This document shows positions 16,301 to 61,052 of a DNA stretch of 64,000 nt, in pieces. A program made the translations under genes and the position numbers. The notes beneath the pieces are model-generated. The model was not told the origin of the DNA and ran no database searches. It saw nothing but the letters and a program-made list of their open reading frames with translations. The stretch lies in the NCBI GenBank assembly GCA_963805645.1, contig CAWDVA010000005.1, positions 62,113 to 126,112 on the forward strand, written 5' to 3'. Positions within the stretch are counted from its first letter, which is position 1; the number at the start of each line of letters is the position of its first letter. This DNA comes from an uncultured Chloroflexia bacterium. Its GTDB lineage: Bacteria > Chloroflexota > Limnocylindria > QHBO01.

Positions 16301-17202
16301 ACGGCCCGCAGGGCCTCGGGGCTGGGCCGGTCGCCCGATTCGGTGACGGGTCGCGGATCCGCGAAGACCAGGGTCACCGTCTTGCGCCGGTCCGCTGCTG
16401 GTGCGGTGCGGTCCAGGACGGCGCCGCAGGTGCCGCAGGTGACGAAATCGGCCGGGTTGTCCTCACCGCAGCTGGGGCAGGCGCGAGCGCCGTCGCTGGC
16501 CGCGTCCTTCGACTCGTTGACCGACGCCTCCGCCGCAGCCGAGACGGCCACCAGCCGGTAGGCCGTGATGGGTTCCTCGAGGCCCTTGGGGACGAAGGGG
16601 CCAATGGGCTCGACCTCTACGGCGTCGCGCACGATCTCGTAGGTCGAGCCGGCCAGCAGCGCCTCCGACGGCAGAGCGTTCTGCTCCATCACCGTGGCGA
16701 TGCGCATGGTGTCCCCGGTGAGCACGTGCTGGCCCTCGCTCGCCTCGCCGACGATCACCTCGCCCGTGGCGATCCCGGTCCGGTTGACCAGCTCGACGCC
16801 GTAGATTCGTTCGAACTGCTCGTTCAGCGAGCTGAGCGTCCGCAGGCTCTCGACAGCGGCCACCACGCCGCGCAAGGGATCGTTGTCATGGTGGGTCGGC
16901 AGTCCGAAGACCGCGACGATAGCGTCGCCGATGATCTTCTCGATCGTCCCCCCGTGCGACTCGAAGACGATGCGCATCTCGTCGAAGTAGCGGGTGAGGA
17001 GCTCGCGAAGCGACTCGGGATCCAGGCGCTCACCCAGCGCGGTCGAGCCCTTGAGATCCGAGGTCACGACAGTGACCGTCCGACGAATCTCTTCGGGAGC
17101 GCGGCTCGGATCCAGGACCGTTCCACAGTACCCACAACGTCGGAACCGATCCGGAACGGACCGGCCGCAGTGCGGACACGGCATTGCTTGCACCCGATTC
17201 AT
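13291..17202 (-). CDS. Multidomain signalling protein: two tandem (zinc-ribbon + class III cyclase) modules, then NB-ARC/AAA STAND ATPase, then TPR repeats
   Basis: CPHCG...CGYCG and CPSCG...CGTCG zinc ribbons each precede a CHD (FSDLKGST / FADPRPVT...GDAVNTAARLE). Walker A GDAGVGKSRL; long C-terminal TPR-like helical region. No C-terminal LuxR HTH. Confidence 0.85.
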   Translation of the reverse strand: MNRVQAMPCPHCGRSVPDRFRRCGYCGTVLDPSRAPEEIRRTVTVVTSDLKGSTALGERLDPESLRELLTRYFDEMRIVFESHGGTIEKIIGDAIVAVFGLPTHHDNDPLRGVVAAVESLRTLSSLNEQFERIYGVELVNRTGIATGEVIVGEASEGQHVLTGDTMRIATVMEQNALPSEALLAGSTYEIVRDAVEVEPIGPFVPKGLEEPITAYRLVAVSAAAEASVNESKDAASDGARACPSCGEDNPADFVTCGTCGAVLDRTAPAADRRKTVTLVFADPRPVTESGDRPSPEALRAVMSRYFDVMRPILERHGGTVEKFIGDAVMAVYGLPTLHEDDALRAVRAALEMQQALPALNAEIASDWGVSFESHIGVNTGEVIAGDASLGQRLVTGDAVNTAARLEQAAGAREVLLGDLTYRLAREQIEVDEVEPLTLKGKAEPVPAFRLRGVATVDQAVHRRNDAPMVGREQEMAALAGLYARATEQGSCELATVVGDAGVGKSRLIAEFTASAAAGARVIRGKCLPYGDGITFWPLREAARDAAGIGVDEGAESALGKLRSAIEAEEVVDRLASVMGLSTTPYPVPEIQWGARKFLEHLAGTQPVVMIVEDIHWAETTFLELLQNLVTNVEHAPVLLLCTSRHELLDRDPDWGLADGAVRLVLRPLSDADAGMVVAGLLGGTGLPEVVQQRIVDAAAGNPLFVEQLLSMLIDNGSLRQADGHWEQVRDLTALEVPPTIQALLAARLDLLQSTERGVIEPASVIGQTFAQAAVAELVPADASPQVPDHLRAIARRELITSSAGTGEDEAAYKFAHILVRDAAYNGLLKRARADFHERFVDWAEELNLRQGRAGHEFEEIHGYHLEQAYRYLSELGTIDEHARRVGIRASEKLSSAGRRAQARGDMPAAASLLRRAVSTRSLSDPDRLAILPDLGESLMELGEFEDAERVLKEAIAGAREHSDDRLEAEASLLALMLQLYTADATDWAESVATQVDRAVPIFEAMDDHAGLALAWRLRFGMFGTEGKYGDAARAADQVIEHARLAGDFRAQTRGASGYATSAPYGPIPVPEAIERCEELARSSHGDQRTVATINSALSQLYAMRGEFEKARDLYRGARATLEDLGAGVLSASTSIDSSRVELLAGDLAAAERELRRDYDALTAMGEKFLLSTIAGFLGHVEIEAGHLDAAGALADEVRDLAPPDDIDSQAMWRAVKARVVALEGQRDEGVALAREAVEISRRADAPRLQADMLVALAATEGACGHPSDANQHFSDALRLYEGKGDLISSARIRSELGTSDARS

Positions 17203-17272
17203 TCCAGCGCGAGTGTAGATGGTGCGGGGACCCCCGGACCTGTCGCCGGCGCCGGATGCGGACGAGGGAATG

Positions 17273-17788
17273 TCAGTCCGGAAGCAGGGCGAGCCACGCG
17301 GACACCCGGTCCAGCGCGTCGTCGAGGACCGGCCGGATGCCGTGGCCCACCCGCGGGTACGTCACCAGCTCGGCCCGGGGCAGGCGCGCGACCGCCCGGC
17401 GCAGGAGGGCGATCCGTGCGAACGGATCGGACTCGCCCGAGAGAAGCAGCACCGGGCAGCCGATGCGTTCGAAGTGGTCGGTGCGTTCCTCCCACTGTTC
17501 CGGATGACCGGGCCGATGGAGCGGGTACGCGAAGAGAACGAGGCCGGCCGCCGGCTGCTCCGCGGCAAGAAGGCTGGCAACGCGCCCGCCGAAGGAGTGA
17601 CCGCCGATCACGGCGTCGGTCGCACCGTCGACCGCCGCGCGGTAGGCGGGCACCGCGCGGTCCGCGCGCCCACGCGGCAGCACCACAGCCTCCGTCTCGA
17701 TGCCACGCGAGCGCAGGCCGTCAAGCTGGGGACGAAGCCCGGCGACCGACCCTGACGCGCCAGGAGCGAGAAACATGCGCGGTGCCAT
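17273..17788 (-). CDS. Alpha/beta hydrolase (short, dienelactone-hydrolase/Tex30-like)
   Basis: Only the last 171 codons of ORF 17273..18454(-) look genuine: MAPRMFLAPGASGS...IGGHSFGGRVASLLAAE...YPRVGHG. Confidence 0.6.
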   Translation of the reverse strand: MAPRMFLAPGASGSVAGLRPQLDGLRSRGIETEAVVLPRGRADRAVPAYRAAVDGATDAVIGGHSFGGRVASLLAAEQPAAGLVLFAYPLHRPGHPEQWEERTDHFERIGCPVLLLSGESDPFARIALLRRAVARLPRAELVTYPRVGHGIRPVLDDALDRVSAWLALLPD

Positions 17789-24988: not shown

Positions 24989-25798
24989 ATGAACCAGATC
25001 GCCTCGTCTCTCCCCGGCGCAGCGCCCGTCCCCGACATCGCGGCGGTCGAGCGACGCATCGGACGGCTCCGCATCTACAACGTTGTCATGGGCTTCCTGC
25101 ATCTCGTGCAGGGTGCCGCCATCCTGGTGCTGGCCAACGACTTCGCCCTGCCGGTGACGGCGTCCTTCATGGCCGGACCACCCGGCTCCGGCCTCGTTCG
25201 CGACACGACCCTCTTTGACCTCCGCTTCGGGTGGGCCATCGCAGCGTTCCTGTTCCTCTCCGCGGCGGCGCACTTCCTGGTCGCGAGCCCGGGCATCTTC
25301 GGCTGGTATCGCGCCAACCTGCTGCGCGGCCGCAACTACGCGCGCTGGATCGAGTACGCGTTCAGCTCATCGCTGATGGTGGTGCTGATCGCCATGCTGC
25401 CCGGGATCAGCGACGTGGCCGCCCTGGGTGCGATCTTCGGGGTGAACGCGGCGATGATCCTCTTCGGCCTGCTGATGGAGCACTACGAGCAGCCAGGCCG
25501 GCCGAACTGGATGAGCTACTGGTTCGGTGTGCTCGCGGGCGCGGTGCCCTGGATCCTCATCGGCATCTACCTGTGGAATCCTGGATCGGAGGTTGCGGCA
25601 CCCGCCTTCGTGTACGCGATCTTCATCTCGCTCTTCGTCTTCTTCAACAGCTTCGCGGTCAACATGGTGCTGCAGTACCGGCGCGTGGGGCCGTGGCGCA
25701 ACTACCTGTTCGGCGAGTCGGTCTACATCGCCCTGTCTCTGCTGGCCAAGTCGGCGCTGGCCTGGCAGGTCTTCGCCGGGACCCTCGCACCGCGCTGA
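24989..25798 (+). CDS. Heliorhodopsin (7TM retinal protein, inverted topology family)
   Basis: RIYNVVMGFLHLVQ...NYARWIEYAFSSSLMVVLIAML...IFGVNAAMILFG...FFNSFAVNM...LSLLAKSALAWQVFAGTLAP. TM7 lysine in the SLLAKSALAW context and a TM3 glutamate, as in characterised heliorhodopsins. Confidence 0.8.
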   Translation: MNQIASSLPGAAPVPDIAAVERRIGRLRIYNVVMGFLHLVQGAAILVLANDFALPVTASFMAGPPGSGLVRDTTLFDLRFGWAIAAFLFLSAAAHFLVASPGIFGWYRANLLRGRNYARWIEYAFSSSLMVVLIAMLPGISDVAALGAIFGVNAAMILFGLLMEHYEQPGRPNWMSYWFGVLAGAVPWILIGIYLWNPGSEVAAPAFVYAIFISLFVFFNSFAVNMVLQYRRVGPWRNYLFGESVYIALSLLAKSALAWQVFAGTLAPR

Positions 25799-25846: not shown

Positions 25847-27658
25847 ATGGCCATCGACTCTGACGAGTACCGCTCCGCGGCACACGAGCTCCTCGACGCA
25901 GGCGCGCATGATCCGCTCGACACCATGCGCCACTCGGCCGCGCACATCATGGCCTCGGCCGTCCTCGAGCTGTTCCCCGACGCGAAGCTGGGCATCGGCC
26001 CTGCCATCAAGGACGGGTTCTACTACGACTTCGACCTGCCGCGGCCGCTGACCCCTGCCGACCTCGAGGCGATCGAGGGCAAGATGCGCGAGCAGGTGGC
26101 GGCGGACCTGGCCTTCCAGCGTACCGAGCTGGATCGCGAGGCCGCCCTGGCCCAGCTCGAGTCCGAGAAGCAGCCCTTCAAGGTCGAGATCGTTCGCGAG
26201 CTTCCCGACGAGGAGGCGCGGATCGTCAGCTTCTACCGCCACGGCGACTTCAACGACCTGTGCCGCGGGCCGCACGTCGCGACCACGGGACGGCTGGGGC
26301 CGTTCAAGCTGCTCAACAGCGCTGCGGCCTACTGGCGCGGTGACGAGAAGCGACCCATGCTCCAGCGCATCTACGGCACGGTCTGGGAGACGCAGGAGGA
26401 CCTGGACCGCTACCTGTGGCGCCTCGAGCAGGCCCGCGCTCGCGACCATCGGCGCCTGGGCCGGGAGCTGGACCTGTTCACCTTCCATCCGGAGTCGCCG
26501 GCGGCCCCCTTCTGGCATCCGAAGGGCATGGTCCTGTACCGAACCCTGGAGGCGTGGTCGCGCCAGGTCCGTGCCGATGGCGGGTTCGCGGAGGTGCGCA
26601 CGCCATCACTGGTCCGCCGCGAGCTCTGGGAGCAGTCCGGGCACTGGGACCTCTACCAGGACAACATGTTCGTCCTGGACGACTACGACCATCCCTCCGG
26701 GCTCAAGCCCATGAACTGCCCGCAGGAGATCCTGGTCTACAAGACACGGTCCCGCTCGTACCGCGACCTCCCGATTCGCTTCGCCGACTACTCGACCCTG
26801 TTCCGCAAGGAGCGCACGGGGGCCCTGGCCGGCATGTTCCGGGTGCGCCAGCTCACCCAGGACGACTCCCACGTGTTCTGCCGGGAGGACCAGATCGCCG
26901 ATGAGCTGCGCCTGGCCCTCTCGCTGGTGAAGCGGCAGTTCGCACCGTTCGGCTTCGAACCGCGCTTCAAGCTCGCCACCCGCCCGGCCAAGAAGCTGGG
27001 CAGCGACGAGTTCTGGGACATGGCCGAGGGCAAGCTGCGGGACGCCCTCGAAGCGGACCAGCTTCCGTATACCCTCGATCCGGGCGGTGCGGCCTTCTAC
27101 GCCCCGAAGATCGACGTCTTCATCGAGGATGCGCTGGGACGGGAGTGGCAGATGGCGACCGTCCAGCTCGACTACCAGCTGCCGCAGCGGTTCGACCTGG
27201 AGTACCGCACCGCCGATGGCGGCTTCGAGCGACCGGTGATGATCCACTACGCGATCTACGGCACCTTCGAGCGCTTCACCGGGATCATCGTCGAGCACTT
27301 CGCCGGCGCCTTCCCGCTCTGGCTCGCGCCGGTGCAGGTGGTGGTCATCCCCATCGCAGATCGGCATCTCGAGTACGCCGGATCGGTTCGCGATGCCCTG
27401 GCCGCCGCGGGCATCCGGGCCGAGGTGGACGAGCGCTCCGAACGGATGCAGGCCAAGCTGCGCGACGCGCAGGAACAGCAGATTCCCGTCATGCTCGTGG
27501 TGGGCGACCGCGACCAGGAGGCCGGGGCGGTGAGCCCGCGGCTGCGCACCGGGCGCACCCGACAGGGGGTTCCACTCGATGAGTTCGTCGAGCACCTCCG
27601 GACGCGCAGCGAGGCCCGGGAGCTGTGGCCCTACGACGACAACGCCCCCGCTGACTGA
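25847..27658 (+). CDS. thrS: Threonine--tRNA ligase (lacks N-terminal TGS domain)
   Basis: RHSAAHIMA editing-domain motif, class II catalytic core, C-terminal anticodon-binding domain; 603 aa. Confidence 0.9.
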   Translation: MAIDSDEYRSAAHELLDAGAHDPLDTMRHSAAHIMASAVLELFPDAKLGIGPAIKDGFYYDFDLPRPLTPADLEAIEGKMREQVAADLAFQRTELDREAALAQLESEKQPFKVEIVRELPDEEARIVSFYRHGDFNDLCRGPHVATTGRLGPFKLLNSAAAYWRGDEKRPMLQRIYGTVWETQEDLDRYLWRLEQARARDHRRLGRELDLFTFHPESPAAPFWHPKGMVLYRTLEAWSRQVRADGGFAEVRTPSLVRRELWEQSGHWDLYQDNMFVLDDYDHPSGLKPMNCPQEILVYKTRSRSYRDLPIRFADYSTLFRKERTGALAGMFRVRQLTQDDSHVFCREDQIADELRLALSLVKRQFAPFGFEPRFKLATRPAKKLGSDEFWDMAEGKLRDALEADQLPYTLDPGGAAFYAPKIDVFIEDALGREWQMATVQLDYQLPQRFDLEYRTADGGFERPVMIHYAIYGTFERFTGIIVEHFAGAFPLWLAPVQVVVIPIADRHLEYAGSVRDALAAAGIRAEVDERSERMQAKLRDAQEQQIPVMLVVGDRDQEAGAVSPRLRTGRTRQGVPLDEFVEHLRTRSEARELWPYDDNAPAD

Positions 27659-52750: not shown

Positions 52751-54139
52751 GTGACCGACCTCGTAGTGGCGGGAGGCACGGTCGTGACCGCCGACCGCTC
52801 GTTCGCGGCAGACATGGCGGTGGGCGACGGACGGATCGAAGCCGTGGCCCCCGGCCTTGCGGGACGCCATCGGGATGCCCGCGTGATCGACGCGACCGGG
52901 CTGCTGGTTCTGCCCGGCGTGGTGGACGTCCACACGCACACCCGGCTGCCCACAGACGAGCGTCCAGACCGTTTCTACGACGATTCGGTTGCCGCGGCGT
53001 TCGGGGGCACCACCACGTTCCTGGCCTTCAACAACCCCGGGACAGGGATCAGCGAGGCCGGCGCCGCGTCGCTCCTCCGCGGTCTCGACGAATTCAGGGC
53101 CCGGACAGAGGGGGAATCGGCGGTCGACTACGGGCTGAGCGCGGTCCTCACCGGATCGCAGCCCGACCCCATGGGCGAGCTGCCGGCCCTCATCGGATCG
53201 GGGGTGCCCACCTTCAAGGCCTTCATGATCTACGACTTCCGCCTCAGCGACGAACGGCTCTTCGAGATCCTGCGGGTGGCCGGGCGCTCCGGCGGGATGC
53301 TCCAGGTCCACTGCGAGAACGCCACCATCATCGACGCCCTGACGGCGGAGGCGATCGAAGCCGGCCACGTTGCCTGCCGCTACCACGCGGCGACTCGACC
53401 GTCCTACGCGGAGGCGGAAGCCACCCACCGGGCCATTGCCCTGGCGCGCGCAGCGGGGGCGTCGCTGTTCATCGTCCACCTCTCCTGCGCCGATGCCCTG
53501 GCCGAGGTCGCCGCCGCCAAGGCGCGCGGCTGGCCGGTGTACGCCGAGACCACGCCGCCCTACCTTGTCTACACCGATGAGCGATACGAGACCGATGACG
53601 AGGCGGAGGCGATCCGCTCGGTCATCTCGCCGCCCTACCGCTCCGACGCCGATCGCTCCGCCCTGTGGCTTGGCGTGCGGGCCGGCGGCCTGGACCTGGT
53701 GGCCACCGACCACGTGCCGGACCGCCTGGACACCGACAAGCGCCTGCCGGCGCCCCCCTTCCCGCAGATCAGCAACGGGGCGCCGGGCATCGAGACTCTG
53801 CTGGCCGTCGTGTATGGCGAGGGTGTCGCTCGCGGGCGGCTCACGCTGGAGCGGATGGTTGACCTGCTCTCGACCACGCCGGCGCGGCTGTTCGGGATGC
53901 CGTCGAAGGGAGCGATCGAGGTCGGCCGAGACGCGGACCTGGTGCTGCTCGACCCGGATGCGTCACGCACCATCCGCCAGGCGGACCTGCACCACAGCTC
54001 GGACTTCACGCCGTTCGAGGGCCTGCACGTGACCGGCGCGGTGCGAACCGTGCTGTTGCGGGGCCAGCCCGTTGTCCGTGACGGCATCTTCGTCGGGCGC
54101 CGGGGGATGGGCCACTTCCTGGAGCGGGCCCTCCGGTAA
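52751..54139 (+). CDS. Cyclic amidohydrolase (allantoinase/dihydropyrimidinase family)
   Basis: VDVHTHT metal-binding motif and carboxylated-lysine region; 462 aa. Sits in the purine-catabolism context. Confidence 0.8.
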   Translation: MTDLVVAGGTVVTADRSFAADMAVGDGRIEAVAPGLAGRHRDARVIDATGLLVLPGVVDVHTHTRLPTDERPDRFYDDSVAAAFGGTTTFLAFNNPGTGISEAGAASLLRGLDEFRARTEGESAVDYGLSAVLTGSQPDPMGELPALIGSGVPTFKAFMIYDFRLSDERLFEILRVAGRSGGMLQVHCENATIIDALTAEAIEAGHVACRYHAATRPSYAEAEATHRAIALARAAGASLFIVHLSCADALAEVAAAKARGWPVYAETTPPYLVYTDERYETDDEAEAIRSVISPPYRSDADRSALWLGVRAGGLDLVATDHVPDRLDTDKRLPAPPFPQISNGAPGIETLLAVVYGEGVARGRLTLERMVDLLSTTPARLFGMPSKGAIEVGRDADLVLLDPDASRTIRQADLHHSSDFTPFEGLHVTGAVRTVLLRGQPVVRDGIFVGRRGMGHFLERALR

Positions 54140-54385
54140 GACGACCCTCGCGCACGCCAGTTTGGGATACCCGCCCGAACGAATCGGGAGGACGAGCGCG
54201 CGGCCGGGATGCCTTGCGCCCGTGAGCGCTTCGCGCTCCCCCCGATCCAGCGCATACTTCGGTGACCCGGAAGAGAGGCATCGGGACTGCCCTGTCCCCA
54301 CCAGCGCGGCGTCCCCCATACGGTCGCCTCGATCGTCGCGCAGGGCCAATGGCGAGCCCGACTCCTCCGCGCACAAGGAGCCTCC

Positions 54386-54820
54386 ATGCGCATCCAGGCC
54401 AGCATCACCACCAAGCGACCGATCGGCGAGGTGTTCGCCGCTCTGAGCGACTGGACGAATACGTCGACATGGATCTCGGGCACGCAGTCCGTCACGAAGA
54501 CCTCGGACGGGCCGATCGGCGTCGGTACGACCTGGCAAGCGGCCGGCAAGACCCTGGGTCGCACGATCGAGACCGGTGTCACGGTGACCGAGTTCGAGCC
54601 CGACCACAGGTTCGTCTGGACGACCGACAAGCCATTCAAGGCCACGACCACCTTCACCTGCGAGTCAGTTGACGGCGGTACCCGCGTGGACCAGACCACG
54701 GACGGAGAGCTCGAAGGATTCTTCAAGCTGGCCGGGCCGATGATGCAGCCGATGGCGAAGCGACAGATCCAGCATGACCTGGAGAACTTCCGGGACCTGA
54801 TGGACGGGCACGCCCTCTGA
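54386..54820 (+). CDS. SRPBCC (polyketide cyclase/START-like) family protein
   Basis: 144 aa with the typical SRPBCC beta-grip pattern. Confidence 0.6.
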   Translation: MRIQASITTKRPIGEVFAALSDWTNTSTWISGTQSVTKTSDGPIGVGTTWQAAGKTLGRTIETGVTVTEFEPDHRFVWTTDKPFKATTTFTCESVDGGTRVDQTTDGELEGFFKLAGPMMQPMAKRQIQHDLENFRDLMDGHAL

Positions 54821-55122
54821 ACGAGCGGGCGGAGCCCACTGCACCGCCATCGCGCCGCTGGGCTGGGGGCGGAACCGACATCAATGATGCCCGCCCGACG
54901 CCCCCTCTCACGACAGCACTGAGCACTGGCACGCGCAGCGCTCGCAGCCGAGGTCGGTCTCGTCTCGGCCGTCGGCGCTCCCCTGGCCCACCCCGCCGTT
55001 GCCCGATTCCATCATCGGGCGGGATCGTCGGAACGCTCAGCTGCTCGGCATTGGGCACCGACGAGCGGTGACCGCTGACACCTGGCGACACGCTGCTCCG
55101 AAGGGTCTCGTTCGGCGCTTCG

Positions 55123-55147
55123 GGTGACAGTACCGAACACTCGCGCA
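55123..55147 (+). repeat. Conserved 25-nt intergenic motif, copy 1 (GGTGACAGTACCGAACACTCGCGCA)
   Basis: Read directly from sequence; 24/25 identical to copy 2. Confidence 0.6.
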
Positions 55148-55162
55148 TGCTGCTCTGCCCCC

Positions 55163-55714
55163 TCACCCCCTTGTGACGCCCTCCGCGCTCGAAACCGAGC
55201 CGAGGGCCGCACGAAGTGCGTGCAGCTGGGCATTGCTCAGTGACCGTTTCGGAATCGTCAGCACCCAGCGTGCACGCGCTCCTGTTCCCTCCACCAGATG
55301 GATGCAGCGCGCGTCTTCATGTACCGCGCTCAGAGCGCTCCAGGCGATGTCGCGCTGCCGGGATCCGATGACCCGGTGCACACCGGAGGCATCCATCGAT
55401 ACGACCGTGTCGTTGGTGAGGTACGGCCGCACCCCAGGACCCCGGCTCAGTACCGGCCACAGGAACCGCAGGGGTGGGATGCGCTCCAGCAGGAGGTACC
55501 CAGCAGCCACTACCGCCAGCGAGCCCGCCCACACCGAGGCGAAGCCAACGGACCAGCCCACGAGGCCAGCCAACAATACGAGCAGGACGATTCCGTCCGT
55601 GACCCGTTGCTGGGCAGCGTTCGCGATCCGGACCCCATCCAACAGCTCCTCGAAGGTGGTACGGAACCGAATTGAGGCGCTTGGAGGGACGGGGGTGGTT
55701 GGGTCTTCGGCCAT
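55163..55714 (-). CDS. Membrane protein, YcxB-like (hypothetical)
   Basis: Two TM helices (IVLLVLLAGLVGWSVGFASVWAGSLAVVAAGYLLL) then a PH-like domain. Motif copy 2 lies 46 nt upstream of the start. Confidence 0.5.
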   Translation of the reverse strand: MAEDPTTPVPPSASIRFRTTFEELLDGVRIANAAQQRVTDGIVLLVLLAGLVGWSVGFASVWAGSLAVVAAGYLLLERIPPLRFLWPVLSRGPGVRPYLTNDTVVSMDASGVHRVIGSRQRDIAWSALSAVHEDARCIHLVEGTGARARWVLTIPKRSLSNAQLHALRAALGSVSSAEGVTRG

Positions 55715-55764
55715 TCCTCCATCCTAGTGACAAGGGCTCTTGGGATGCGGAGGCGCCCCACTCT

Positions 55765-55789
55765 GGTGACACTACCGAACACTCGCGCA
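55765..55789 (+). repeat. Conserved 25-nt intergenic motif, copy 2 (GGTGACACTACCGAACACTCGCGCA)
   Basis: Read directly from sequence. Confidence 0.6.
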
Positions 55790-55818
55790 GGGGGCTGCGA
55801 TCGCTCGCGCTTCTCCTG

Positions 55819-56229
55819 TCAGCAGCCAGTGGTGGTCTCCGCGCGTCCGGCTGGCGCAAGTCCAGGCATGGGCTCGTTGTTCGTTGTGACGGAGGCCTTC
55901 TCGGCCGCGTCGATCGAGATGACCACGTACTGCGCCTTGGTCTGGGCCCCGGTCACGACCTGGCAGTGCTCGGTGAGCACCTGGACCGTTCCGACGAATG
56001 CGCCCCAGCCCTCGTCAATCACCAGCGATGCGTGAGCGGGGATCGTGAAGGAGCGCCCCACCGGCCCATCCTCGAGGCGAACCAGGAAGCCCGCGGCACT
56101 CTCGTTACTGGCGGTCACCGACCATCGGTCGACGCATGCCGTGGTGAGCACTGCGAGACACGCCAGAAGAAGAAGCACTCCGACACTACGGCGTCGTGGC
56201 GGACCCGGAGTCCGGTGGCTGACCCCCAT
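55819..56229 (-). CDS. Putative small lipoprotein (hypothetical)
   Basis: VGVLLLLACLAVLTTAC lipobox-containing signal peptide. Motif copy 3 lies about 67 nt upstream of the start. Confidence 0.45.
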   Translation of the reverse strand: MGVSHRTPGPPRRRSVGVLLLLACLAVLTTACVDRWSVTASNESAAGFLVRLEDGPVGRSFTIPAHASLVIDEGWGAFVGTVQVLTEHCQVVTGAQTKAQYVVISIDAAEKASVTTNNEPMPGLAPAGRAETTTGC

Positions 56230-56298
56230 GACTCCAGTGTGTCCATCCCGAGTCCGTCGTCAAGATTCGCATCGTCCAGCGGGGTGGTATCCCTTTCG

Positions 56299-56323
56299 GG
56301 TGACATTACCGAAGTCTCGCGCA
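56299..56323 (+). repeat. Conserved 25-nt intergenic motif, copy 3 (GGTGACATTACCGAAGTCTCGCGCA)
   Basis: Read directly from sequence; 22/25 identical to copy 1. Downstream flank CTCTCCGTGCCACCCCC resembles the copy 1 flank CTCTGCCCCCTCACCCCC. Confidence 0.55.
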
Positions 56324-56609
56324 GACCTCTCCGTGCCACCCCCTGAACGATTCGGTAGGACCACCACGCGACCGGGATGCTGCGCTCTTGCCGGCGCGGA
56401 AAGCACAGGGACGCGGACCGGTGATGGCGCAGAGGCGCGTGTCCACGCCCCAACCCCTCAGCGGGCGGTGGACGCCTTGCTCGTCGCGTCCCACGGCCTC
56501 GACCGATACCTCCGCGAGCAGCGCGCCCGCATGATCGCCCCGACAACCTCACGCCCGCGGAGGATGGGTTGTCGGGCACACGCAGGGGTGATGGCGTAGG
56601 GTTTGCATC

Positions 56610-57068
56610 GTGAGCCGCGACGTCGAGGACCTGAACCGGCGCCTGCTGCGCGCCCGCGACGCGATGGACCGCGCCTATGCCGAGCCGCTCGACGTCCGCG
56701 CCGTGGCCGCGGTGGCCCACATCTCGGAGGCGCACTTCATCCGCAGCTTCCGCGCCGTCTTCGGCGAGACGCCGCACCGGTATCTGCAGCGGCGGCGGGT
56801 GGAGCGCTCGATGTTCCTGCTGCGTGAGACCGACCGTACCATCACCGATATCTGCCTCGATGTTGGCTTCACCAGCCTGGGGACCTTCAGCCGCACGTTC
56901 CGGGAGATCATCGGCCAGACGCCGTCCGACTACCGCGCCGGGCATGAACCGATGGTGGCGCCCAACTGCATCCAGATGTGGGCCATGCGGCCGCGCGTTG
57001 CTGCGAGCGAACCAGGCGGATTCCGCAGTTTTGGAGAAGCCCGCGTCCCGGGCCCTCCCCTAACCTGA
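56610..57068 (+). CDS. AraC-family HTH transcriptional regulator (short, DNA-binding domain only)
   Basis: VAAVAHISEAHFIRSFRAVFGETPHRYLQRRRVERSMFLLRETDRTITDICLDVGFTSLGTFSRTFRE. Confidence 0.7.
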   Translation: MSRDVEDLNRRLLRARDAMDRAYAEPLDVRAVAAVAHISEAHFIRSFRAVFGETPHRYLQRRRVERSMFLLRETDRTITDICLDVGFTSLGTFSRTFREIIGQTPSDYRAGHEPMVAPNCIQMWAMRPRVAASEPGGFRSFGEARVPGPPLT

Positions 57069-57106
57069 TCCTCGTTCGTCCCGACCCTCGCAATGGAGCA
57101 GGTTCA

Positions 57107-57535
57107 ATGATCACCAGGCTGAACGTCGCCTCCATCTACGTCCTCGACAAGGACGAGGCCCTCGACTTCTACATCCACAAGCTCGGGCTGGAGAAGGCAT
57201 CGGACTTCACTCAGGGTTCCTACCGCTGGCTGACGGTGCGGGTTCCGGGCCAGCCCGGCATCGAGATCTCCCTCGAGCAGCCGGGCCCGCCCCTCCACGA
57301 CGACGCGACCGCCGAGCAGCTCCGCGAGCTGATCACGAAGGGCGCCCTGAGCGGCCTCGTCTTCCACACCGATGACGCCCGCGGCCTGTACGACGCCCTG
57401 CGCGAGCGCGGCGTCGAGGACTTCACGCAGGAGCCCATCGACCATTTCTACGGGACCGACATCGGCCTTCGCGATCCCTTCGGCAACGCGATCCGAATCA
57501 TCCAGCCGAAGGCCGCCCGAGTGGCGACCGCCTGA
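57107..57535 (+). CDS. VOC (glyoxalase/bleomycin-resistance) family protein
   Basis: Internal ATG with GGAGCAGG RBS; MITRLNVASIYVLDKDEALDFY... The AraC + VOC pair is a common stress/drug-response module. Confidence 0.7.
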   Translation: MITRLNVASIYVLDKDEALDFYIHKLGLEKASDFTQGSYRWLTVRVPGQPGIEISLEQPGPPLHDDATAEQLRELITKGALSGLVFHTDDARGLYDALRERGVEDFTQEPIDHFYGTDIGLRDPFGNAIRIIQPKAARVATA

Positions 57536-57559
57536 CCCGATAGCGAAAGGAGCCACAGC

Positions 57560-58036
57560 ATGGCTGACACCAAGCCCGCCACCGGGCGAAACCGAACATC
57601 CCGCACGTCCACCAGGGTCTGGACGGATGAAGAGCGGGCCGCAATGGAGGAGGGCGCCCGGGAGCGGAAGACCACCTCACGACGCAGCCCGGTCGACGAG
57701 CGGGCCCAGGGCGAGCGCGAGCTGCTCGCCAAGATCGCCGGGTTGCCCGAGCACGATCGGGTCATGGCCGAGCGGCTCCACGCCCTCGTCACGACCTCGG
57801 CGCCGACGCTCGTGCCGCGGACGTACTACGGGATGCCCGCCTACAGCAGGGACGGCAAGGTGGTCTGCTTCTTCAAGCCTGCCTCGAAGTTCAAGGAGCG
57901 ATACGCGACCTTCGGCTTCGAGCAGAAGGCGAACCTCGACGACGGCTCCATGTGGCCGACCTCCTTCGCGCTGACCGAGCTGACCGCGGACACCGAGGCG
58001 AGAATCGCCGCGCTCGTGAAGAAAGCGGCGGGCTGA
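57560..58036 (+). CDS. DUF1801 (YdhG-like) domain protein
   Basis: C-terminal [33 protein letters not shown] conserved block. Confidence 0.6.
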
Positions 58037-58039
58037 GCC

Positions 58040-60391
<2,352 letters not shown>

Positions 60392-60539
60392 CCGTTTCAG
60401 CGTCGAGAGACCGGGCGACCAGCCGACTGCTGCCAGCATCCGCTCATGACGCTTCTGGTCGCGGGCTGGCTCGTCCTGGTCCCGACGCTCCTCGTAATCC
60501 AGATGCGCTTCTACGACGCCCACCAGCGGCCCTGAGCCA

Positions 60540-61052
60540 TCACGCGAGGAGTGCGCCCATGCTCGCCGAGTCCCCGGTCTTCCCGATCCGGTAGGCGGTG
60601 AGCACGGCGTCGAGCTTGGTGAATGCCTCGGCCCAGCCGTTCTCGGTGGGTGCCGCGTAGCCCTCCGGGAGCCACTGGCGGATCTCCAGCCGGGTCCGTC
60701 CGTCGGCCTCGTCGTGGAATTCGAGCCGGACCCGGGTCTCGAACGGCTCGAAGCCACCAGGCAGCTGGCCGGTGATGTGCATGATGCCGTCCAGCAGCGC
60801 ACCGTCGACGACGTCGGTGAGATCAAGGCGGCCCTGGGACCAGATGGCGGGATCGGCCGGGAAGATCTCCTTCCATTGCAGGTAGCCGCCGGGGCGCACG
60901 TCGAACTCGACCTGATCGCGAGGCAGCGCGTTGCCGATGGGACCCCACCACGCCGCGAAGTGGTCGGGATCCGTGAACGCCCGGTACACGAGAGCGCGCG
61001 GCGCGTCGAAGACGCGCGTCACGGCGAGCTGTGGGGTCGCGGTCGTGGTCAT
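60540..61052 (-). CDS. SRPBCC/AHSA1 (activator of Hsp90 ATPase homologue)-like protein
   Basis: Internal ATG MTTTATPQLAVTRVFDAPRALVYRAFTDPDHFAAWWGP; ATGA overlap with the ArsR stop. Confidence 0.65.
   Translation of the reverse strand: MTTTATPQLAVTRVFDAPRALVYRAFTDPDHFAAWWGPIGNALPRDQVEFDVRPGGYLQWKEIFPADPAIWSQGRLDLTDVVDGALLDGIMHITGQLPGGFEPFETRVRLEFHDEADGRTRLEIRQWLPEGYAAPTENGWAEAFTKLDAVLTAYRIGKTGDSASMGALLA

Follow-up and report, generated by a model that had tools for sequence, protein, structure and literature searches.

The 64-kb stretch of DNA analysed here (the window) comes from an uncultured Chloroflexia bacterium (contig CAWDVA010000005.1), and our subject is a short asymmetric motif that recurs between small genes downstream of its dihydropyrimidinase gene. 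The window has a G+C content of 69.8% and carries core chromosomal genes, among them those for ThrRS, IF3, PheRS and EF-G, a YebC-RuvC-RuvA group, and a purine-catabolism cluster that ends with the dihydropyrimidinase/hydantoinase gene (52751-54139). The predicted ThrRS (25847-27658) shares 80-81% identity with Candidatus Limnocylindria proteins from metagenome-assembled genomes (MAGs) and 91-96% with other MAG contigs. The closest relatives that bear a name are thus Ca. Limnocylindria, and the bacterium most probably belongs to this class of Chloroflexota and not to the Actinobacteria, despite the high G+C content. Downstream of the dihydropyrimidinase gene, in order across the motif copies, lie an SRPBCC gene on the plus strand, a YcxB-like gene and a putative lipoprotein gene on the minus strand, and a plus-strand block of AraC, VOC, DUF1801 and UvrA-like genes (Table 1). 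We propose that the motif is probably a recombination site at which single-gene cassettes are exchanged.

A motif repeated after the dihydropyrimidinase gene

The initial annotation of the window had listed three copies of a conserved 25-nt motif, at 55123, 55765 and 56299. All three are exact plus-strand matches to the 25-mer GGTGACANTACCGAANNCTCGCGCA (n=3 in the window), which found 0 matches in 100 dinucleotide-preserving shuffles with up to 3 mismatches tolerated. Recomputation gave the same identities as before, with 24 of 25 positions shared between copies 1 and 2 and 22 of 25 between copies 1 and 3, and the spacing, put at 0.5-0.65 kb, is 642 nt and then 534 nt. These three strong copies span 1.2 kb, and profile and pattern scans found no significant copy in the rest of the window.

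Three features go beyond what had been annotated. Conservation runs 4 nt further to the left (yTCk) and ends abruptly on the right, which gives an element of about 29 nt with the family consensus yTCk-GGTGACAKTACCGARCACTSGCRCA. A decayed copy upstream of copy 1 retains the exact 10-mer GAGCACTGGC and a ctct left flank; taken alone, it is weakly significant (nhmmer E 1.8). Finally, the dihydropyrimidinase stop codon is followed by a resident chromosomal half-site, S0, that consists of the right part of the motif only. Its core begins 7 nt past the stop codon, and its overlap with the full motif is confined to about 12 nt, CGAG-N-CTCGCGCA. The arrangement G(G/A)CGAN-N-CTCGCGCA follows the stop codon in seven genomes (the window, L005, L006, L007, L008, L010 and L019), whichever cassette comes next. 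S0 is also the left boundary of the variable region: alignments of the core genes with L006, L010 and L009 stop at 54150-54161. The window contains no tRNA or tmRNA gene, so the repeat is not a tRNA fragment.

Motif copies coincide with breakpoints in gene content

Using the dihydropyrimidinase and the lipoprotein as anchors, we gathered the syntenic loci L005-L010 and L013-L019, with nine distinct arrays among them. When genome, metagenome and viral collections were scanned for the pattern, the matches were due to chance and lay in coding regions (L001, L003, L004, L011 and L012), except for one true relative, L002, a 1.3-kb contig from a close relative. The core genes of the window and its relatives share 77-88% nucleotide identity (mostly 79-84%) up to the boundary at S0, beyond which gene content differs in almost every genome, making this a hypervariable region. 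A fuzzy search and an nhmmer profile located approximately 18 further or orthologous motif copies in the relatives, only in the variable stretch and always on the dihydropyrimidinase strand, and further degenerate remnants occur in L007, L008, L009 and L015. No copy was found outside this hot spot in the roughly 200 kb examined (the 64-kb window and about 150 kb of flanks of relatives).

The copies separate consecutive genes of any orientation, while their polarity is constant relative to the chromosome. In the window, copies lie upstream of minus-strand genes; in L006 and L007, some copies precede plus-strand genes by 41-83 nt; and 6 of 16 copies sit between convergent 3' gene ends with no adjacent start codon. 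Copies between convergent ends, together with the mixed orientation of the genes, exclude a directional promoter as the common function. Such a pattern would be expected of a polarity that the site determines and the neighbouring genes do not.

Breakpoints in gene content fall within a few bases of the motif. The empty site is present in L010, L016, L017 and L018, where the stop codon is followed by GGCGAGTCTCGCGCA, directly by CGCGAGTCGCC, and then by a gene for a 210-aa protein. In L008, 1.25 kb comprising a cupin cassette and an AHSA1 cassette, the latter ending in the motif, is inserted exactly between those two sequences. The cupin cassette begins immediately after the CA that ends the motif in four different contexts, following S0 in L008, a 116-aa cassette in L007, the lipoprotein cassette in L013 and a 126-aa cassette in L019. 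Likewise, the lipoprotein cassette has differing neighbours in the window, L002, L005, L013/L014 and L015, and the 210-aa gene is found after S0, after an S51 peptidase gene or after AHSA1. For the lipoprotein, cupin and 210-aa cassettes homology begins at the motif in each context, and the orientation of each cassette relative to the motif is constant across genomes. Pairs of close sequences show the same edge: L007 and L013 are 96.5% identical over 2.4 kb from the left edge of a motif and unrelated further left, and L002 matches the window at 97% identity over a stretch that opens at 55761, 4 nt to the left of copy 2, and takes in the lipoprotein gene and copy 3, but to the left of copy 2 it has an unrelated plus-strand open reading frame (ORF) in the position of the YcxB-like gene.

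The cassettes measure 0.4-1.0 kb, usually hold one gene, and have lower G+C and lower G+C at third codon positions (GC3) than core genes. Most are without family assignment, and searches of Pfam, NCBIfam and PDB gave none for these proteins, including the 210-aa protein, which we had considered as a candidate recombinase on account of its position beside the empty site and set aside on this result.

Several observations concern the fate of individual sites. The empty site (L010 11388-11420; also L016-L018) forms an almost perfect palindrome, GAGGCGA(GT)CTCGCG-CA-CGCGAG-TCGCCTC, flanked by convergent genes. Its fold has an energy of -18.6 kcal/mol (z -1.2), and it could also act as a bidirectional terminator. 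Between the cupin and S51-peptidase cassettes, L013 has a complete motif (reverse strand 9414-9387); in L007 (12396-12402) this motif has lost 21 internal bases and the cassettes are fused, and in L008 it carries a different partial deletion. In L006, a gene for an IS481-family transposase (rve, LZ_Tnp_IS481; 16452-17402, minus strand) lies inside one cassette, 16 nt from a motif copy.

Site geometry and position of the crossover

In S0 the spacer is invariably one base long and the third core base a C, irrespective of the cassette that follows, whereas in cassette sites the spacer is two bases long and the third core base is often a G. Since the S0 spacer and C are constant, the core stays with the left partner and the exchange falls to the right of motif position 20. 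A rare GCACA variant that precedes the cupin cassette in two contexts (L007 and L013) suggests that the exchange occurs to the left of position 23. We would place the crossover within GCRCA or just after it.

The terminal CA of the motif is nearly invariant and non-palindromic. The motif as a whole had been described as non-palindromic, which is correct for the 25-mer itself but not for its junctions, where the 7 nt after the CA tend to mirror the 7 nt before it (ACTSGCR-CA-YGCSAGT). On average 4.2 of 7 positions match, compared with 2.54 +/- 0.24 at random positions; other offsets give at most 3.0, and with homologous cassettes collapsed the observed value was equalled in 0 of 5000 resamplings. 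A full-length inverted right arm is present only at S0 in L006 (17/23), at S0 in the window (14/23, where the first 7 nt of cassette 1, CGCCAGT, mirror the core at 7/7) and at the flank of the 210-aa gene (15/23). In addition, GGTGA occupies positions -23 to -19 in cassette sites and RGTRA positions -18 to -14 in S0 (seven genomes). This block of 4-5 nt takes in the stop codon, and we recognised it only in hindsight.

Cassettes and other features of the locus

Table 1. Features of the variable region in the window (window coordinates) and positions of motif copies in related loci (coordinates of each locus).
Feature	Position	Strand	Description
S0, resident chromosomal half-site	54137-54154	+	Stop codon TAA 54137-54139, GACGACC, core CTCGCGCA 54147-54154
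Cassette 1	54155-54933		230-nt leader and SRPBCC/polyketide-cyclase-like gene (54386-54820, +); PF10604, E 1.6e-18
Decayed motif copy	54909-54933	+	ctct-CACGACAGCACTGAGCACTGGCACG; 17/25 vs family consensus
Segment between decayed copy and copy 1	54934-55122		Gene-less; no ORF with the codon bias of the genome
Motif copy 1	55123-55147	+	GGTGACAGTACCGAACACTCGCGCA; 35.3 bits; 15 nt from YcxB-like stop codon, gene start on neither side
YcxB-like cassette	55148-55789 (642 nt)		Membrane protein gene 55163-55714 (-); closes with copy 2
Motif copy 2	55765-55789	+	GGTGACACTACCGAACACTCGCGCA; 35.6 bits
Lipoprotein cassette	55790-56323 (534 nt)		Putative lipoprotein gene 55819-56229 (-), GC3 0.78; closes with copy 3
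Motif copy 3	56299-56323	+	GGTGACATTACCGAAGTCTCGCGCA; 33.5 bits; identical copy in L002
Leader-like remnant	56324-56521		Collinear with 54155-54390; includes GAACGATTCGG; best ~50 nt, 78% identity
AraC block	56522-60592	+	AraC-type regulator, VOC/glyoxalase, DUF1801, UvrA-like ABC ATPase (Pfam)
Motif copy in L005	9412		
Motif copies in L006	15450, 15826, 16411, 18143		
Motif copies in L007	11859, 13337		
Motif copy in L008	12626		
Motif copies in L013/L014			Four copies
Motif copy in L019	7630		
Motif copies in L002			Two copies

The YcxB-like gene matches PF14317 below threshold (16.4 bits vs a cutoff of 23.3 bits). Its GC3 is 0.76, and both minus-strand cassette genes thus lie at 0.76-0.78, compared with about 0.9 in core genes; the segment has 65-67% G+C. 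The gene-less segment that precedes copy 1 is possibly what is left of a cassette.

A GAACGA(A/T)TCGG element, also reported by the initial annotation at two places, is real and sits within a longer homology of about 50 nt at 78% identity (local score 49 vs 20.5 +/- 2.5 in shuffles), at an equal distance from the CTCGCGCA core at both (cores at 54147 and 56316). This homology belongs to the similarity between the SRPBCC leader and the stretch after copy 3, which fades toward an ATG at about 56530 that aligns with the SRPBCC start codon; the AraC block starts at 56522. Judging by this alignment, a second cassette of the SRPBCC type seems once to have followed copy 3, with its gene since replaced and a diverged part of its leader left behind. 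Within the 230-nt SRPBCC leader there is a sub-threshold match to the c-di-GMP-II-GAG riboswitch (RF03169; 54265-54372, plus strand; 26.3 bits vs a gathering score of 40, E 0.037), in which ACGGUCGCCU and GCCAAUGGCGAGCCCGAC align well and the outer helix does not.

The AraC block forms the remainder of the variable region, with backbone synteny restarting at 60593. Its first part (56522-58256) is 97.9% identical to L006 19655-21389, compared with 81-84% for the flanking core genes, a difference that indicates a recent horizontal exchange of the block within the same hot spot. As a test of a phage or plasmid origin, the corresponding collections were searched and gave only weak matches, to the AraC gene, and look-ups of two window proteins returned no exact-sequence record. 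Elsewhere in the window, a heliorhodopsin gene (24989-25798, plus strand; PF18761, E 9e-100) adjoins the ThrRS gene.

Interpretation and alternative explanations

We consider it probable, at about 60%, that the motif is an attC/attP-like recombination site of single-gene cassettes mobilised in trans at one chromosomal hot spot. Under this proposal, a recombinase encoded elsewhere in the genome would join the site on a circular cassette to S0 or to another cassette site, the crossover falling at the nearly invariant terminal CA of the motif or no more than a few bases away. The products would be junctions of an x-core with the cassette and of the cassette's own motif with y, without target duplication and with the polarity of every site and cassette fixed. 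Recombination between direct sites would excise cassettes, so that arrays come to differ between strains, and point mutations and small deletions in sites, such as the 21-nt loss in L007, would freeze old cassettes. Cassettes would carry their own expression signals, could lie in either orientation and would accumulate directly after the dihydropyrimidinase stop codon. The enzyme would have to act in trans. The geometry is suggestive of a large serine recombinase, and a tyrosine recombinase is conceivable.

Several points weigh against this proposal. No tyrosine or serine recombinase was found in the 30 of about 55 window ORFs scanned or in the gene tables of the other loci, which covered approximately +/-10 kb around the arrays (in L015 and L018, about 4 kb at one flank) and yielded a single find, the IS481 transposase. 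At the right end of the 4-kb AraC block (60391-60593) the motif is missing. On the right-hand side of the crossover, internal junctions match the inverted arm at 6-10 of 23 positions, which is background (null 7.3) and unusual for a two-arm recombinase site. The placement of the crossover depends on few polymorphisms, and one of them, the GCACA of L007 and L013, requires an exchange between positions 20 and 23. The collection scans required an A at position 15 and CTCGCG, a pattern absent from most family members and hence too strict for these scans to settle the genome-wide distribution of the motif. Lastly, the evidence throughout is a comparison of metagenome-assembled contigs.

The main rival is that the motif is a passive repeat, a conserved intergenic module, for instance of the insulator or terminator kind and duplicated together with the junctions, around which content changes by homologous or short-homology recombination and flank-mediated transfer with no dedicated recombinase. 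The absence of a recombinase near any array examined fits this account, as do the empty site, a strong GC-rich palindrome placed between convergent genes as a bidirectional terminator would be, the movement of the 97.9%-identical AraC block with the motif missing at one end, and the 21-nt internal deletion in L007, which shows that illegitimate events occur at the repeats. Yet an expression element should track the orientation of genes, whereas polarity follows the chromosome in all of the approximately 18 copies. The copies share no consistent hairpin (z +0.75 to -1.7), 25 nt is very short for RecA-dependent exchange, and unrelated cassettes bear the same element at the same end with base-precise junctions. 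We regard this explanation as unlikely.

A regulatory site was the reading first suggested for the motif, either as a promoter, with TAnTGT serving as a minus-strand -10 element, or as an AraC or ArsR operator of a small regulon. The hexamer is there on the minus strand, reading TACTGT, TAGTGT and TAATGT in the three copies, and copies 2 and 3 do lie upstream of minus-strand genes, with gaps to the start codons of 50 and 69 nt by our ORF calls rather than the 46 and 67 nt first given, a trivial correction. The L006 and L007 copies found ahead of plus-strand genes would also suit such a role, were their orientation to the downstream gene not opposite to that in the window. Orientation bound to the chromosome and the 6 of 16 copies that adjoin no gene start speak against a shared promoter or operator, and no copy has a -35/-10 match, scans for sigma-70 promoters and terminators being empty at every one. 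The motif furthermore lacks the dyad or direct-repeat structure typical of ArsR and AraC operators, arrays are present in genomes without an AraC gene, and regulation leaves the coincidence of the motif with gene-content breakpoints unexplained. We judge this reading improbable. The other suggestion, of a short repeated mobile or regulatory element, pointed in the right direction, in that on our reading copies mark the ends of mobile single-gene cassettes.

We give equally little credence to a selfish dispersed repeat, whether like a repetitive extragenic palindrome, like a miniature inverted-repeat transposable element or a transposon end, that inserts genome-wide. The motif is short, conserved and intergenic and has several copies in one region, as such a repeat would, but it shows no terminal inverted repeats, palindrome or target-site duplication. 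Copies are also missing from the rest of the window and from the flanks of the relatives, their polarity is strictly one-way, and each cassette has one copy instead of two ends.

Least probable among the alternatives weighed is an ordinary integron array that has no integrase (a cluster of attC sites lacking integron-integrases, CALIN) and has unusually conserved attC sites. Single-gene, mostly ORFan cassettes of 0.4-1 kb resemble such arrays, and integrons are known in Chloroflexi (PMC4889954), but the junctions all lack a GTTRRRY/RYYYAAC pair (the window contains one by chance, inside a gene, and about 20 kb of the other arrays contain 0), the sites show no imperfect-palindrome fold, cassettes lie in both orientations, and no IntI gene adjoins the array.

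Two further candidates were rejected. A structured RNA or riboswitch finds no Rfam match at the copies (no family in the window at the gathering threshold, and nothing overlapping the copies at the E-value threshold), and no structure is shared among single-strand DNA folds of 10 sites or by RNAalifold on 16 copies, where the covariation check proposed in the initial annotation gave 0 pairs. A dif/Xer site is a poor match to published dif sequences, and the locus has no GC-skew switch.

Significance

To our knowledge, integrons are the only well-understood stockpile of single-gene cassettes, with one integrase family and one folded site type. If our proposal is correct, an abundant uncultured soil phylum would hold a second, mechanistically different cassette platform, and accessory-gene organisation of this kind would have evolved more than once. 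It would also explain part of the strain-level variation in gene content among such MAGs, and it would provide a short, defined DNA bait for identifying the recombinase at work. Should that enzyme be a serine recombinase that needs one specific half-site, it would be of potential interest for genome engineering. In practical terms, an nhmmer profile of the motif offers a simple marker for cassette cargo in metagenomes.

More tentatively, and with somewhat less than even confidence, we suggest that the arrays represent an integron analogue in Chloroflexota (Ca. Limnocylindria) that is new to science, with a chromosomal platform at the 3' end of a dihydropyrimidinase gene that takes up and reshuffles single-gene cassettes, an asymmetric site of 25-29 bp, a trans-encoded recombinase and autonomous cassettes in either orientation. 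The recombinase might then possibly be a promiscuous large serine type that requires one defined half-site and a CA dinucleotide. A full-text literature search with two sub-strings of 11-12 nt found, by title and abstract, no description of the motif among the matches listed.

Comparison with known systems

Xer-dependent elements, namely integrative mobile elements exploiting Xer (IMEX) at dif and the Acinetobacter pdif modules, resemble the cassettes described here in being integrase-less modules with short sites that are moved by a host enzyme in trans. The pdif sites alternate in orientation, unlike the one-way sites here. The breakpoint here also lies at the end of the motif rather than at its centre, and there is no switch in GC skew at the locus, although a dif site, 28 bp long with an 11-6-11 layout, would be expected at the replication terminus. 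Only ATGTCA is shared with the Frankia dif sequence CACGCCGATAATGCACATTATGTCAAGT (PMC3025954), and ATAA-N6-TTAT is absent.

The attP and attB sites of large serine integrases, each with two imperfectly inverted half-sites of about 20-25 bp around a 2-bp crossover, invite a closer comparison of geometry. The conserved arm here is approximately 25 bp, the length of an attP half-site, the non-palindromic central CA dinucleotide would set polarity, and the empty site is an imperfect palindrome around that CA. In serine integrase sites, the distal zinc ribbon domain (ZD) motif is shifted by 5 bp toward the centre in attB relative to attP (Rutherford et al. 2013, PMC3783163). A comparable shift may exist here, GGTGA being 5 bp nearer the centre in the chromosomal than in the cassette half-site, within the limits of the short, post hoc block described above. 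In contrast to attP and attB, the second half-site is barely conserved at internal junctions. Serine integrases alone are inactive on attL and attR, so that arrays of this kind would need a promiscuous enzyme of the CcrAB type. Since the weak right arms do not fit a classical serine integrase and the ZD-like shift was noticed post hoc, we assign no enzyme class.

Tycheposon arrays in Prochlorococcus genomic islands (Hackl et al., bioRxiv 10.1101/2020.12.28.424599) share with our loci a fixed hot spot beside a conserved gene, with successive integrations that leave partial attachment sites and degenerate remnants. They differ in that their attachment sites are partial tRNAs and their elements are kilobase-long and carry tyrosine recombinases; no tRNA is found here.

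The tandem ssrA-specific islands of Dehalococcoides, which belongs to the same phylum, and the composites of the staphylococcal cassette chromosome (SCC) (McMurdie et al. 2011, PMC3146451) come closer. Those islands are about 10-30 kb long, many carry a six-gene integration module, and their recombinase is a large serine recombinase (PMC3146451). In common with our arrays, they integrate at the 3' end of a single-copy gene, accrete in tandem between short one-way direct repeats (20 bp there) and include some units without integration genes, thought to be mobilised in trans or in cis. On the other hand, their repeat copies the end of the target gene, whereas about 12 nt is shared with the resident site here, and our units hold single genes, with an integrase module in none of the nine arrays. 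As in the ssrA, SCC and tycheposon systems, direct repeats of the core bound each unit, in one orientation, beside a conserved single-copy gene.

For integron cassettes and attC we took Cury et al. 2016 (PMC4889954) as the reference system. Like integrons, our loci hold shuffled arrays of mostly single-gene ORFan cassettes of 0.4-1 kb, each ending in a recombination site; the sites are all direct, resident and cassette sites have only a short core in common, like attI and attC, and old cassettes retain decayed sites. The differences lie in the machinery. A conserved sequence of 25-29 bp takes the place of the folded imperfect palindrome of 57-141 nt that forms attC, GTTRRRY/RYYYAAC core sites are absent from the junctions in about 25 kb of arrays, and neither an adjacent integrase (no Phage_integrase match in the scanned ORFs and gene tables) nor a Pc promoter is present, although a CALIN does not require these. 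Genes lie on both strands within one array and, unlike integron cassettes, which are mostly co-oriented and promoterless, therefore need their own promoters, and the array is situated at the 3' end of a metabolic gene, that for dihydropyrimidinase. The arrays fall outside the definition of an integron with respect to attC structure, IntI and cassette orientation. By analogy of function, nonetheless, integron cassette arrays are the closest known system, with the Dehalococcoides ssrA islands also close.

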